From: a virus
Lineage: Duplodnaviria > Heunggongvirae > Uroviricota > Caudoviricetes
IMG/VR virus record: IMGVR_UViG_2541047823_000013
Reading direction: 5' to 3' (one strand)
Length of the DNA stretch: 44,198 bases
The position numbers were made by a program, and so were the translations under genes. Below are positions 20,056 to 28,447 of this stretch, one piece after another. The stretch's first letter is position 1. Each line of letters starts with the position of its first letter. Below the pieces are notes generated by a model, which worked only from the letters and a program-made list of their open reading frames with translations, was not told the origin of the DNA and made no database searches.

Positions 20056-22017
20056 TCATGCCGCGGCATCCGCGTTGTTCACTTCCACCTTCACACTGTC
20101 AATCAGCAGCGTATATGTCGCCGCCTTTGATATGCCTGTCAGTTGCAGTTTGTCCGCCGCCCCTGATGCCGGAGATTTCACCAGTGTGAACGGCGTCCCC
20201 CGTTTCTCATCCAGTACCGGCGTCACCTGAATGCTGTTGTTTCCGGCAAACTCAAAAGCCAGTGTGTGCCATCCGTTATCAAAGACCCCGAACGTATCCA
20301 GCTTCGCATTCGGCTTCTTGTGGTGCATCGCGTTCAGGTTCGTCGCATCCGTCTGCAGGAAGAAGGACATCAGCATGTCGTTGCCTTCCTCTGCCAGCGT
20401 CACTCCCTCCGGCAGGGACGACAACTGCCAGTAAATGCCCAGGGCAAACTGATTCGGCACCAGTGAACCCGGCAACTTAAACCGTACGCTCACACGTCCC
20501 CCCTTCTTCAGTAACTCCACTCCCTGTCCGGCTGCATCATGCTCCAGAAACCAGATGTGGTTTTCCGGTTTATTCAGTTGCAGGGCCTTACCTCCCGTAG
20601 CCCCCGCATCACTGACCACCGCTTCAGCAATGTTTTTGTTAACATTGTCTCCGCTCGCCGGTTTGTGATAATAGCGCCAGCCCTGTGATGCCAGGTCTTC
20701 GCCGGACGCCAGCAGACTCATCAGGGTTCGGTTACTGACCGGGGCTTCCGGCTCTCTCTCCGTACCTTCACCGGAAGGTCCGGTGGGCTTCACCGTATCA
20801 GGCTGTTTTCCGGTAATGAATTCAGCGTTTCTCCCGGCATGCACAAGAATCGCCGTTGCCAGACGGTCGGAAATAATCCCACGACGTGCCCATGATCCAA
20901 AATGCGTTTTACGGTCAGCCGTCGTCCAGGTTTTGGCGTCCGTTCGACCACCGGCTCCGTAATACCCAATATCCGCAACATCCGGATCTTCTGACGGCTC
21001 GTTGGTACCCACATTTCGCCCGTTTTCATCCGTCATAAACGGCACAAAGAAGATTTTTTTTGCGGATTTCGTCTTGTATGCACCATACACCGCATCGTAT
21101 TGCGAAGAATAAGTCTGCTTCCAGTAGTAGGTCGTGTCGCCACAAATCCAGGGAACTGATGACGGAGAGCCCCCGAGACACTGACCTCCGAATTCCGACA
21201 GGTCAGAACGATATTTTTCCACCATGGAATCAAACAGCCCCGGCTGAGTGGCGTATGCACCCTGTTTCAAATCAAACTCGCCCTGCATCCAGACCACTGC
21301 AAGCAGAATATTTTTAGGGTTGGCCTTCAGTGCGGCCTGAGTACGGGTAAGCAGGTCCTTGTACAGTGGCTTATCTACACCCCAGCGTGCCGAGGTCTCG
21401 CTTGCGCCGGTGGATTCGCTGAAGGTACCTTCATCGCCCGCCAAAAATGCAGAACCACCACGGCAGCACGGAACCAGAAGAATACCGGCATTCGCCGGAA
21501 TAAACGGCAACAATTTCTTCGCGATATGTAATCCCTGCCCCACGCATCCATACTGAGCTGCGCTGGCTTTCGGGTGTGAAAACTTACTCAAATCCTGAAC
21601 ATCATGCAGGCAGTGGTCCGCAGGAATAATGTCATTGTAGTTACAGGACGCACCACCCGGCGTGACAGTGCTGCGACGCGCCAGCTGTTTAATACGCGGG
21701 TCCGGACGGTCATATGTCTCCGGCAGCGGAAGCCCTTCACCATACGCCATACCGTTTGACTGCCCGGCCAGGGCAACAACAAAGTAATACTCCGGGTTGC
21801 TGGTGGTGCTGATAACTGCGCCTTCTCCATCCGACGGCTTCACCACCACAGGTGTGGTGACATCACCTTCCGCCGCAATGGCCTGCATCAGGGTATAAGG
21901 CGTGATGGCCACCGGACTGCCAAATGGCTGCCACCCCTCCTTCAGTTTTTGTGTCAGTCGTTTCGCAAGGTCTGACGGCGATGCCGCCCTGACCACGTCA
22001 TAGTGTTTAAATGCCAT
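20056..22017 (-). CDS. nanS-p: sialate O-acetylesterase, prophage NanS-p type
   Basis: 653 aa; N-terminal MAFKHYDVVRAASPSDLAKRLTQKLKEGWQPFGSP, SGNH-type GQSNGMAYGEG block, C-terminal beta-rich domain; GGAGG RBS 6 nt upstream. Confidence 0.85.
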   Translation of the reverse strand: MAFKHYDVVRAASPSDLAKRLTQKLKEGWQPFGSPVAITPYTLMQAIAAEGDVTTPVVVKPSDGEGAVISTTSNPEYYFVVALAGQSNGMAYGEGLPLPETYDRPDPRIKQLARRSTVTPGGASCNYNDIIPADHCLHDVQDLSKFSHPKASAAQYGCVGQGLHIAKKLLPFIPANAGILLVPCCRGGSAFLAGDEGTFSESTGASETSARWGVDKPLYKDLLTRTQAALKANPKNILLAVVWMQGEFDLKQGAYATQPGLFDSMVEKYRSDLSEFGGQCLGGSPSSVPWICGDTTYYWKQTYSSQYDAVYGAYKTKSAKKIFFVPFMTDENGRNVGTNEPSEDPDVADIGYYGAGGRTDAKTWTTADRKTHFGSWARRGIISDRLATAILVHAGRNAEFITGKQPDTVKPTGPSGEGTEREPEAPVSNRTLMSLLASGEDLASQGWRYYHKPASGDNVNKNIAEAVVSDAGATGGKALQLNKPENHIWFLEHDAAGQGVELLKKGGRVSVRFKLPGSLVPNQFALGIYWQLSSLPEGVTLAEEGNDMLMSFFLQTDATNLNAMHHKKPNAKLDTFGVFDNGWHTLAFEFAGNNSIQVTPVLDEKRGTPFTLVKSPASGAADKLQLTGISKAATYTLLIDSVKVEVNNADAAA

Positions 22018-22603
22018 GAATCCTCCCGGCCGGGATAATATTGTGAGTAAAATAAGGAGCGGGCTGAAGTCCGGAAGTTACAGGACAATGGCAGAAGAGA
22101 GACGACAGCCCGCAATTCGAAAAAGACCGCGCAGTTGCGCAGCCTTATGAATTCTGGTTAAAATCCATTCGATTATAAAAATGTATATCTCATGCTGTTG
22201 CCCGAACCCACTCGGGCTTTTTTTTGCCCACAAGAAAGCCCCTCCGGAGAGGGGCTAAAGCCGCGTATCTGTATCATCATGCACATGATGCCGGGTGCCT
22301 CCCGGTGAGTTCAGTATCAGCACCTGAACCCGCACAGAAAGGATAAGGGTCGGTGACAAAACACCAGTTGCTGATTGCCCCTCCGCACAGGGGGATTCAC
22401 CATGCCAGTTTCTTTTAACAAATTCGCCGCTAACAGGACAACATTCCGCTTTCTGAGTTGTGAGGAATTTAACACTTCACACCTGTGTGCATTTTCTACA
22501 GGCTGATCCCAGCACCACAATACATCGCAGGCAACAGAAGCCAAATGCCCCACCACAGAAAAAACATGCAATTATGATTATTGTTTACTGCAAAGATGTA
22601 GAA

Positions 22604-23032
22604 TCACGGTTTAAAATCCAGCACTCCATTGTGAAATACTTTATATACTTCCGGAGACGGCGGAACTGGTATATCAGCATGCTTCACCGCATTCATCGCT
22701 TCACGACATAAATCGGGGTCTCCACCTTCTCTTTTAACCTGTAGCAGAAGACCATTCGGGGCCATATACATTCTCAGTGAACACTCTTTTCCTGAATACT
22801 TACTCGCATCCTTTAACTGTTCTTCTATGGCTTTCCTGACCTGAATGGCATACTGCCTGATTTCTTCACTGGCATCAGGGGTACGTTCCGATGAGCTCAA
22901 ATTTTGCGACTTTATTAATTTATCTGAGTGATACAGAGAAGCATCATAATTATTTGTCGATACATCTTTTGTGCAGCCAGTTGTCAGACTGGCTAATATC
23001 AAAACAAGAACTGGTACAGCACGGCAATACAT
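22604..23032 (-). CDS. lipoprotein with TolA C-terminal (domain III)-like module, copy 1
   Basis: 142 aa; signal peptide plus lipobox-like MYCRAVPVLVLILASLTTGC; C-terminus GKECSLRMYMAPNGLLLQVKREGGDPDLCREAMNAVKHADIPVPPSPEVYKVFHNGVLDFKP resembles the TolA C-terminus as I recall it. Confidence 0.75.
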   Translation of the reverse strand: MYCRAVPVLVLILASLTTGCTKDVSTNNYDASLYHSDKLIKSQNLSSSERTPDASEEIRQYAIQVRKAIEEQLKDASKYSGKECSLRMYMAPNGLLLQVKREGGDPDLCREAMNAVKHADIPVPPSPEVYKVFHNGVLDFKP

Positions 23033-26575: not shown

Positions 26576-26914
26576 TCATCCGTTCTGACTGACTAAATCC
26601 TGAACTTCCCGAACCGTCTGCTCAAAACGTTCAGTCTCCAGCTCAACGCCTGTAGCACGACGGCCCAGTGCCAGTGCAGCTTTAACTGTTGAACCTGACC
26701 CCATAAAAAAATCTGCAACCAGGTCACCCGGACGACTGCTTGCGCTGATTATCTGCTGCAGCATTTCTGCCGGTTTTTCGCACGGATGTTTCCCGGGATA
26801 GAACTGCACCGGTTTATGCGTCCAGACATCGGTATACGGCACCTGCGCCGTCACGCCAAAATACCGCCGCAGTCGGCATTCACAACCACCAGCGCATTTA
26901 ACGTTCAGGCACAA
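26576..26914 (-). pseudogene. DNA methyltransferase remnant, copy 2
   Basis: Duplicate of 23513..23851. Confidence 0.6.
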
Positions 26915-27364
26915 AAAAACCCGCTCGACGGCGGGTTTAAGCTGTGTGACGAAGTAACCACTCTTAACAGCATAACCAATTTTTTACGTACGTAAACTAC
27001 TAAATGATATTTGTGAGAATGCCACCGAGTGTTCAAAACACCACCACAAATACATAAGAAAACTTCAACAAATAACCAATGAATAATTTCCGATGTTATT
27101 TTTAGGTTGTTTAAATTAAGCCAAAAAATTATAGGGTACTTATAAATAAGTGTCATTAATATAAATTAGCTAATAGATTTATTTTTGTTCAAACAAGAGC
27201 CATGAATAGGATTAGATAGAAAAGGTTCAGATAAAAATAGAGATCTACGTCAAAAATTAAATGAGAAACTAAAACTTACATCTTGAAATAATCACATTGA
27301 TTAGATGAATATTTATCGCGCAGTGACATCATTTTTTTATAATAGTTCAAAAAAAGGGCGTACA

Positions 27365-28447
27365 ATGAAAAAATTAACAGTGGCAATTTCTGCTGTAGCT
27401 GCATCAGTACTGATGGCGATGTCTGCTCAGGCAGCTGAAATTTATAATAAAGACAGTAACAAGCTGGATCTATACGGGAAAGTTAATGCCAAGCACTACT
27501 TCTCCTCTAATGATGCAGATGATGGTGATACTACTTATGCTCGTCTTGGCTTCAAAGGTGAAACCCAAATCAACGATCAACTGACTGGTTTCGGTCAGTG
27601 GGAATATGACTTCAAAGGCAACCGTGCTGAATCTCAAGGTTCTTCCAAAGACAACACCCGTCTTGCATTTGCAGGCCTGAAATTTGGTGATTACGGCTCA
27701 ATCGATTACGGCCGTAACTTCGGTGTAGCATACGACATCGGTGCGTGGACTGACGTCCTGCCAGAATTCGGTGGTGACACTTGGACTCAAACCGACGTGT
27801 TCATGACTCAACGTGCAACTGGTGTTGCAACTTATCGTAACAACGACTTCTTTGGTCTGGTCGATGGCCTGAACTTTGCTGCTCAGTATCAGGGTAAAAA
27901 TGACCGCACTGACGTAGCTGAAGCCAATGGTGATGGTTTCGGTTTCTCCACTACTTATGAGTATGAAGGATTCGGCGTGGGTGCAACCTATGCTAAATCA
28001 GATCGCACTGACGGTCAGGTCGCCTATGGTAAGAGCAAATTCAATGCCTCCGGCAAAAATGCGGAAGTATGGGCTGCAGGCCTGAAATATGATGCGAACA
28101 ATATCTATCTGGCTACCACATATTCTGAAACTCAGAATATGACCGTTTTTGGTAATAACCATATTGCAAACAAAGCACAAAACTTTGAAGCAGTAGCACA
28201 ATATCAGTTTGACTTCGGTCTGCGCCCATCTGTTGCTTACCTTCAGTCAAAAGGTAAAGACCTTGGTGTTCATGGTGACCGAGACTTAGTCAAGTATGTC
28301 GATGTCGGTGCTACTTACTACTTTAATAAAAACATGTCCACTTTTGTTGATTACAAAATCAACTTAATTGACGATAGTAAGTTTACCAAAACAGCTGGTA
28401 TTGATACCGACGACATCGTCGCTGTAGGTCTGGTTTATCAGTTCTAA
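27365..28447 (+). CDS. nmpC: OmpC-family general porin (NmpC/Lc-type prophage porin)
   Basis: Track ORF 27305..28447 trimmed to [23 protein letters not shown] signal peptide; [17 protein letters not shown]..., ...[22 protein letters not shown]...VGLVYQF; preceded by ~450 bp of AT-rich upstream DNA. Confidence 0.95.

Follow-up and report, generated by a model that had tools for sequence, protein, structure and literature searches.

The window analysed here is the whole 44,198-nucleotide stretch of DNA catalogued as virus record IMGVR_UViG_2541047823_000013 (Caudoviricetes). It corresponds to positions 3-44200 of scaffold KE700719.1 in the 2013 draft genome of Escherichia coli HVH 187 (4-4471660; GCA_000458805.1) and contains a lambdoid prophage whose late genes lie on the minus strand. 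Within this prophage, a unit of 3,063 bp that begins inside a nanS-p-type esterase gene and ends inside a porin gene is present twice, in direct tandem orientation. We think it on balance probable that this repeat is a real and recent tandem duplication that formed independently of homology, is confined to the HVH 187 lineage and is carried by a defective prophage. An earlier reading of the same DNA, made from the letters alone (hereafter the sequence-only reading), had the structure right; the repeat is known from one 2013 short-read draft.

The two copies of the unit occupy positions 21760-24822 and 24823-27885, each of them 3,063 nt long and lying head to tail. Direct comparison leaves a sole mismatch, A at 24592 in the first copy and C at 27655 in the second, and a repeat finder gives a spacing of 3063. 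A repeat of 3 kb at 99.97% identity cannot have arisen by chance. All open reading frames (ORFs), both tRNA genes and both small RNA (sRNA) hits of the unit recur at +3063. The sequence-only reading had proposed a tandem direct duplication starting at 21760 and 24823, a second copy of every ORF and both tRNAs at this distance, and a single-nucleotide polymorphism (SNP) that replaces Lys by Asn in the porin. The comparison of the copies and the ORF and tRNA scans agree with all of this, the SNP changing AAA to AAC at porin codon 97.

The novel junction lies between positions 24822 and 24823, where the sequence reads ...GCTGCTCA|CTGCCCGG... and nucleotide 521 of the porin gene is fused to nucleotide 258 of nanS-p in antisense orientation. 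At the breakpoints, the two copies also agree in the one nucleotide on their left (A, at 21759 and at 24822), and in 0 nt on their right. The junction is thus ambiguous by 1 nt, 21759-24821 being an equally valid register for the first copy, and the microhomology is at most 1 nt; both the joint sequence and this upper limit are those originally put forward. Local alignment detects no homology between the native breakpoints (scores of 19 in direct and 16 in inverted orientation, against 17.6 +/- 2.3 for shuffled sequences), and a quasi-palindrome across them was sought and not found. Neither an insertion sequence (IS) nor a flanking repeat (R-D-R-D-R) was found around the unit in the window, and a repeat scan of the window returned no other long repeat besides a 162-nt array at 8691-9061. 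The duplication is located 21 kb inside the scaffold, counted from its start, in a contig without N.

As homology, IS and flanking repeats are all missing, the only biological route left is a homology-independent illegitimate joining; the illegitimate recombination suggested by the sequence-only reading is indeed the sole route that matches the endpoints. In E. coli, joining of this kind is ascribed either to exchange mediated by topoisomerase or gyrase or to alternative end-joining. A single event, most simply between sister chromosomes, would have linked the porin to nanS-p at these two nucleotides and so written the intervening 3,063 bp twice, head to tail. The resulting duplication should be unstable, since RecA recombination between the 3-kb copies would remove one of them. 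The extra DNA could be tolerated because the prophage, with its split terminase and portal genes, would be unable to package DNA, and the duplication is probably near-neutral.

Close relatives and the order of events

The sequence-only reading had pointed to related prophages as a place to look for single-copy versions, and these exist. In strains AF57 (NZ_OZ546943.1), CE10 (NC_017646.1) and N32, the region is 99.9-100% identical to that of HVH 187 and is present in one copy each. The locus therefore combines what is expected of a homology-independent tandem duplication: adjacent head-to-tail copies, no homology at the breakpoints and a single-copy ancestral arrangement in close relatives. At the SNP site, all three relatives carry A (Lys); the C of the second copy is thus the derived allele, so that the intact porin bears Asn97 while the truncated copy retains the ancestral Lys. 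Residue 97 aligns with W72 of OmpC, two residues ahead of the pore arginine R74, and presumably corresponds to K80 of OmpF.

HVH 187 carries a second private change, at 24190 and its equivalent 27253, where both copies have A and the three relatives have C. Read on the minus strand, this is a G-to-T substitution that turns TGTGA into TTTGA within the counterpart of the CRP site in the PA-2 lc record (J02580.1). Since it is common to both copies, the copying must have taken place within the HVH 187 lineage, after that mutation. The order of events would then be the CRP-site SNP, the duplication and finally Lys97Asn in the intact porin. When the differences from AF57 are polarised with CE10 and N32, no substitution other than these two, which are 402 bp apart, falls on the HVH 187 branch in ~39 kb of prophage. 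The chance of two substitutions lying so close together is about 2%, a figure judged post hoc. We considered whether the private alleles had been imported from a paralogous porin, and this was ruled out, as 81-mer queries against 5,426 complete E. coli genomes recovered neither allele. The porin module itself occupies one place per genome in the relatives for both 81-mers, and one place in CE10.

Elsewhere in the prophage, HVH 187 and AF57 differ at ~1e-4 per site, and the two copies differ at 1/3,063, or 3.3e-4 per site. For copies that date back to the split between HVH 187 and AF57, ~0.3 differences would be expected, and the probability of at least one would be ~0.27.

The joint appears to be confined to this assembly. 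A 300-bp junction query was spanned in 0 of the 5,426 complete E. coli genomes and in none of 50,697 phage records, and an exact 32-mer search found the joint in none of the GTDB representative genomes, IMG/VR or the JGI metagenome contigs. It is through exact look-up of the two junction proteins that the window was traced to scaffold KE700719.1. Among ~15 billion proteins, exact look-up of the chimeric porin and of the intact Asn97 porin returned GCA_000458805.1 and nothing else. The 86-residue product of the truncated nanS-p gene also matches partial genes at contig ends in other assemblies. A shared assembly break at 86 residues was considered on this basis and dropped, because prefixes of 83, 85, 86, 87, 88, 89 and 93 residues are all recorded, in 2-12 contigs each; the coincidence is a product of the way in which the look-up selects, many neighbouring lengths (83-93) being found at contig ends. 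More generally, many short-read E. coli assemblies break within the first ~260 nt of nanS-p, as this gene is multi-copy and mosaic.

Real duplication or product of the draft assembly

Several arguments favour a real event. For a joint without homology to be written well inside a contig, the reads should have contained its k-mers, and the presence of different alleles in the two copies implies that these were phased by read pairs. Moreover, assemblers are more prone to collapse a repeat than to invent one. The right breakpoint lies on no mosaic or repeat boundary, and on the left side the nearest mosaic boundary in the population is at 21860, 100 nt from 21760, with the others further to the right. 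That distance is about one ALLPATHS k-mer (96), which we regard as a coincidence; nothing comparable exists on the right side. Spontaneous tandem duplications are also common in enterobacterial populations (PMC3411829; PMC1428787).

Other observations weigh against this interpretation. One 2013 short-read draft is the sole witness for the joint, the chimeric proteins and the Asn97 porin. In E. coli, the joints of lac amplifications carry 4-15 bp of identity (31 isolates with 28 distinct junctions; PMC1428787), and validated duplication joints in Salmonella carry at least 11 bp, anything shorter having been set aside there as a probable ligation chimera (PMC3411829). With no more than 1 nt of homology, the present joint is therefore atypical of validated events. 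In addition, the 3,063-bp period agrees with the insert of the ~3-kb jumping library in the Broad Institute recipe. Finally, a divergence of 3.3e-4 between the copies, set against ~1e-4 per site in the remainder of the prophage, is mildly unexpected for an event shared by no other isolate.

These points bear above all on the alternative that the strain has a single copy and that the second was created during library construction or assembly, a possibility to be taken seriously although we consider it the less probable outcome. The style of the accession points to a Broad Institute draft of 2013 as the origin of the assembly, and we assume from Broad practice that ALLPATHS-LG was the assembler and that the HVH 187 reads came from fragment and jumping libraries run on Illumina machines. 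Chimeric reads across the joint would then have given a false end-to-start edge in the assembly graph. They could derive from a circularised ~3-kb jump fragment, possibly amplified by the polymerase chain reaction, while an A/C polymorphism in the culture supplied the two alleles of a loop that was walked once. The restriction of the feature to one draft of 2013 fits this scenario, as does a joint of at most 1 nt, which is what blunt ligation would produce. So does the period, since a circularised jump fragment would share the topology of a tandem duplication. ALLPATHS-LG builds its sequence from the k-mers of the fragment library and uses jumps mainly for linking, which argues against it. In addition, two rare things are required together, a chimeric joint that survived error correction and an intermediate-frequency polymorphism within the same 3 kb. 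The collapsing habit of assemblers and the pair-based phasing implied by the two alleles count against it as well, and so does the position of the region, in the middle of a contig without N. When the scaffold, the population boundaries and CE10 were examined, the breakpoints fell on no contig end, N gap or repeat boundary, hence away from the repeat or mosaic boundaries that would break the graph. The Broad bacterial recipe of the period combined a 180-bp fragment library with a ~3-kb jumping library (PMC3483556); beyond this recipe, we found nothing specific in the literature on tandem-duplication artefacts of ALLPATHS-LG or on strain HVH 187.

Forms of mis-assembly other than this one are, taken together, very unlikely. 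In particular, we find it hard to believe that two near-identical modules from separate HVH 187 prophages were mis-threaded into one tandem array. E. coli often harbours several lambdoid prophages, nanS-p paralogues occupy a median of 3 places per genome, and the assembly breaks that are so frequent in the nanS-p 5' region would suit such a model. However, a single porin module is all that the closest relatives carry, the 5,426 complete genomes lack both private alleles, and a mis-join in the graph would need about k-1 shared bases where the breakpoints share at most 1 nt. The 86-residue coincidence does not help either, being the result of look-up selection among ends of 83-93 residues that are all present. 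Least probable of all is a duplication driven by homology, whether by unequal crossing-over through RecA, by an IS or by slippage or template switching at microhomology. Most documented tandem duplications in bacteria arise by such routes (PMC1428787, PMC3411829), yet the locus shows no R-D-R-D-R structure and no IS, and its breakpoint homology is not above that of shuffled sequences, with 1 nt of possible microhomology. Template switching of the type seen in lac amplification operates at 4-15 bp (PMC1428787), which is more than the breakpoints offer. A real duplication by illegitimate joining thus remains the interpretation that we prefer.

Gene content of the unit and its prophage setting

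Read from right to left, the prophage genes around the duplication follow the order Q, porin (opposite in strand to the others), a control region rich in AT, the remnant of a methylase gene, a tRNA with CAU anticodon, tRNA-Arg, a TolA-domain gene, nanS-p, holin, endolysin and spanin. The Q antiterminator, of the QuuD type (28635-29018, minus strand), is not part of the unit and occurs once. One intact porin remains on the right side and one intact nanS-p on the left side, whereas two convergent 5' gene fragments meet at the joint. The remaining content of the unit, namely the TolA-domain gene, the argN-like and ileZ tRNA genes, the methylase remnant and the AsxR-like and STnc100 genes, is present twice.

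The intact porin (27365-28447, plus strand; 360 aa, Asn97) has only its first 521 nt within copy 2. With its match to OmpC structures over residues 24-360 (E = 2e-137) and its place between Q and the lysis genes, in the reverse orientation, it conforms to the Lc/NmpC type of full-length 16-strand general porins homologous to OmpC and OmpF. The module is syntenic with those of phages 434 and PA-2, and its upstream region is 90-97% identical to theirs. A homologue of the CAP/CRP site that is annotated 5' of lc in phage PA-2 is found at 24174-24194 and again at 27237-27257. The chimeric porin (EQT56943.1; 24302-24850, plus strand) consists of 173 native residues, corresponding to the signal peptide and 150 mature residues with the ancestral Lys97, followed by a foreign tail of 9 residues (HCPARATTK).

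On the opposite side, the intact nanS-p-type esterase (20056-22017, minus strand; 653 aa) was identified from its ORF, from its DUF1737, SASA and DUF6645 domains and from the RefSeq annotation of the relatives; its first 258 nt fall within copy 1. The truncated version (EQT56944.1; 24820-25080, minus strand) retains 86 native residues, corresponding to the DUF1737 domain, before a TGA contributed by the antisense porin sequence.

Two convergent sRNA genes are placed between the TolA-domain gene and nanS-p. One is an AsxR-like anti-sRNA (RF02703; 22170-22222 and 25233-25285, plus strand) with 63.0 bits, a borderline pass against the Rfam gathering score of 63; the related AgvB family (RF02702) reaches 43.4, under its threshold of 56. 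The other is STnc100 (RF02076; 22226-22434 and 25289-25497, minus strand) with 132 bits. The TolA-domain protein itself (22604-23032 and 25667-26095, minus strand; 142 aa, PF06519) is known as WP_000271630.1 in the relatives and has a signal sequence containing a cysteine. Its gene occupies the slot of argO and stx in Stx phages. As a decoy for TolA in the periplasm, the protein could counter colicins or filamentous phages.

The tRNA-Arg gene (UCG anticodon; 23311-23387 and 26374-26450, minus strand) is identical to argN of an Stx2 phage at 74/77 positions, and the tRNA gene with CAU anticodon (23397-23472 and 26460-26535, minus strand) is identical at 76/76 positions to the annotated ileZ (tRNA-Ile2) of Stx2a_1447. 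Upstream of them lies what remains, at the 3' end, of an N6/N4 DNA methyltransferase gene (23513-23809 and 26576-26872, minus strand), a pseudogene in the relatives.

Further upstream, a strong hairpin with a T run that resembles an intrinsic terminator (23854-23875 and 26917-26938, minus strand) is a candidate tR'. A consensus scan located a sigma-70 promoter-like site, ATGACA-17-TATAAT with an 11/12 match (24065-24093 and 27128-27156, minus strand), ~190 nt upstream of this hairpin, a spacing similar to that of lambda pR'-tR'. A 450-nt stretch here is conserved in the Q-porin modules of both 434 and PA-2; in phage 434, the holin gene follows it directly. The terminator segment also occurs downstream of Q in the one Stx2 phage inspected (Stx2a_1447). 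From this conservation and recurrence, we infer that the late promoter and terminator of the prophage (pR'-tR') are inside the duplicated unit. The candidate pR'-tR' has the appearance of a 6S/StxS-like short-transcript unit, here separated from the Q gene by the porin gene. The genes that the sequence-only reading assigned to the unit are correct; the AsxR-like/STnc100 pair and the candidate late promoter and terminator had been left out.

The window begins 2 nt from the start of KE700719.1, within the tail genes, so that the far end of the prophage is cut by the scaffold end. Coordinate transfer from AF57 places its right end on the last base of the integrase gene. In AF57, CE10 and N32, the integrase adjoins mlrA, which we take to be the integration site of Stx1-type prophages (yehV). 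The prophage is probably defective. Its large terminase gene (within 12860-14522, minus strand) is split in two frames, as ORFs 12860-13666 and 13533-14522, and its portal gene likewise, at 8225-9286 and 9283-10647 (minus strand). Both frameshifts are also annotated in AF57 and CE10, whereas the N32 versions are intact. The 162-nt (54-codon) tandem array at 8691-9061 lies in the portal-region gene; its units are ~86% identical, and the window has 2.3 of them, one unit fewer than AF57 and CE10.

Two other regions of the prophage attracted our attention. Positions 18293-19129 show ~22 clustered substitutions compared with AF57 and CE10, and there the window has an intact 162-residue DUF1327/YdfR ORF (18646-19134) where a truncated pseudogene is annotated in the relatives; this segment looks like a small recombination patch. 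In the early/immunity region, close to Rha-family regulator genes, Rfam hits to C4 antisense RNA (34942-35029, minus strand; 75 bits) and isrK (35051-35127, minus strand; 62 bits) lie side by side. The pair looks like a C4-antirepressor module of the P1/P7 type or a control module of the IsrK type.

Consequences and comparison with known systems

If the duplication is real, it would double the dosage of ileZ, of the argN-like tRNA, of the AsxR-like sponge, of STnc100 and of the TolA-domain protein. The late operon would possess two tandem Q-responsive promoters, and transcription of the two gene fragments would converge at the joint. A porin truncated to its N-terminal part, with the C-terminal half missing, would be expressed from a promoter of its own, the CRP site of which is mutated. 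The case would then provide a small, dated example of change in a cryptic prophage, in which one joining doubles a cargo cluster and spares both flanking genes. If it is an artefact, EQT56943.1 and EQT56944.1 would be fictitious genes, and homology-free tandem repeats of about mate-pair size in drafts from around 2013 should not be annotated as biology.

One could also imagine that the porin locus has been under selection, for example by phage, serum or antibiotics, in this clinical isolate of extraintestinal pathogenic E. coli, and that the duplication was kept for a gain in dosage. We regard this as unlikely. It may find some support in three independent private hits on the porin, namely the loss of the TGTGA half-site at the CRP site, Lys97Asn and a breakpoint inside the gene. 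The gain would in that case consist of doubled tRNAs for rare codons, an anti-sRNA sponge, STnc100 and a late promoter, and the locus would be a rare case in which the copy number of a prophage sRNA rose by tandem duplication and not by a new prophage. The extra copies of the prophage Pas sRNAs (PasA, PasD), for instance, are reported to have come from repeated prophage acquisition, not from tandem duplication (bioRxiv 10.64898/2026.05.13.724894).

Whichever outcome holds, the repeat exemplifies, in one strain and in an ordinary cargo region of a decaying prophage, either a well-known kind of mutation or a sequencing artefact of a known type, and knowledge of duplication mechanisms and of phage biology is unchanged. 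It resembles the spontaneous duplications of E. coli and Salmonella (PMC1428787, PMC3411829) in being a kb-scale head-to-tail repeat with one novel joint and a single-copy ancestor, in requiring no long homology and in its expected instability by recombination between copies. It departs from them in its joint, known from assembly alone and with at most 1 nt of homology instead of their 4-15 bp or at least 11 bp. Ligation chimeras of mate-pair, jumping or shotgun libraries have the same blunt end-to-start joint and, in the case of jumping libraries, a span equal to the ~3-kb insert (PMC3411829, PMC3483556). However, such chimeras are normally unique reads of low coverage that remain outside contigs, whereas here the joint is mid-contig and the copies differ by a SNP.

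Tandem duplications that raise the copy number of tRNA genes have been found to be adaptive in Pseudomonas fluorescens SBW25 (PMC10954465). As in that species, tRNA genes are doubled here by tandem duplication, in this case ileZ and the argN-like gene, which read rare codons. Unlike the present case, the SBW25 duplications are large and of proven adaptive value, having arisen where the lack of a tRNA imposed a defined selection; that of HVH 187 covers 3 kb of a defective prophage.

The closest parallel in gene content is the moron site located 3' of pR' in lambdoid prophages, which harbours convergent anti-sRNA pairs such as AsxR and AgvB (Tree et al., 2014; PMC4104026). The layout known from Stx-type lambdoid phages is present in the window, with Q, terminator, ileZ, argN, cargo, convergent sRNAs, nanS-p, holin, endolysin and spanin. 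The methylase is part of this common order, the sRNA pair is AsxR-like plus STnc100, and ileZ is the same at 76/76 positions as in the Stx2 phage. In contrast to Stx phages, the cargo is a TolA-domain gene and not stx, and an Lc/NmpC-type porin sits between Q and the candidate pR', as it does in phages 434 and PA-2. The entire cluster is doubled in HVH 187.

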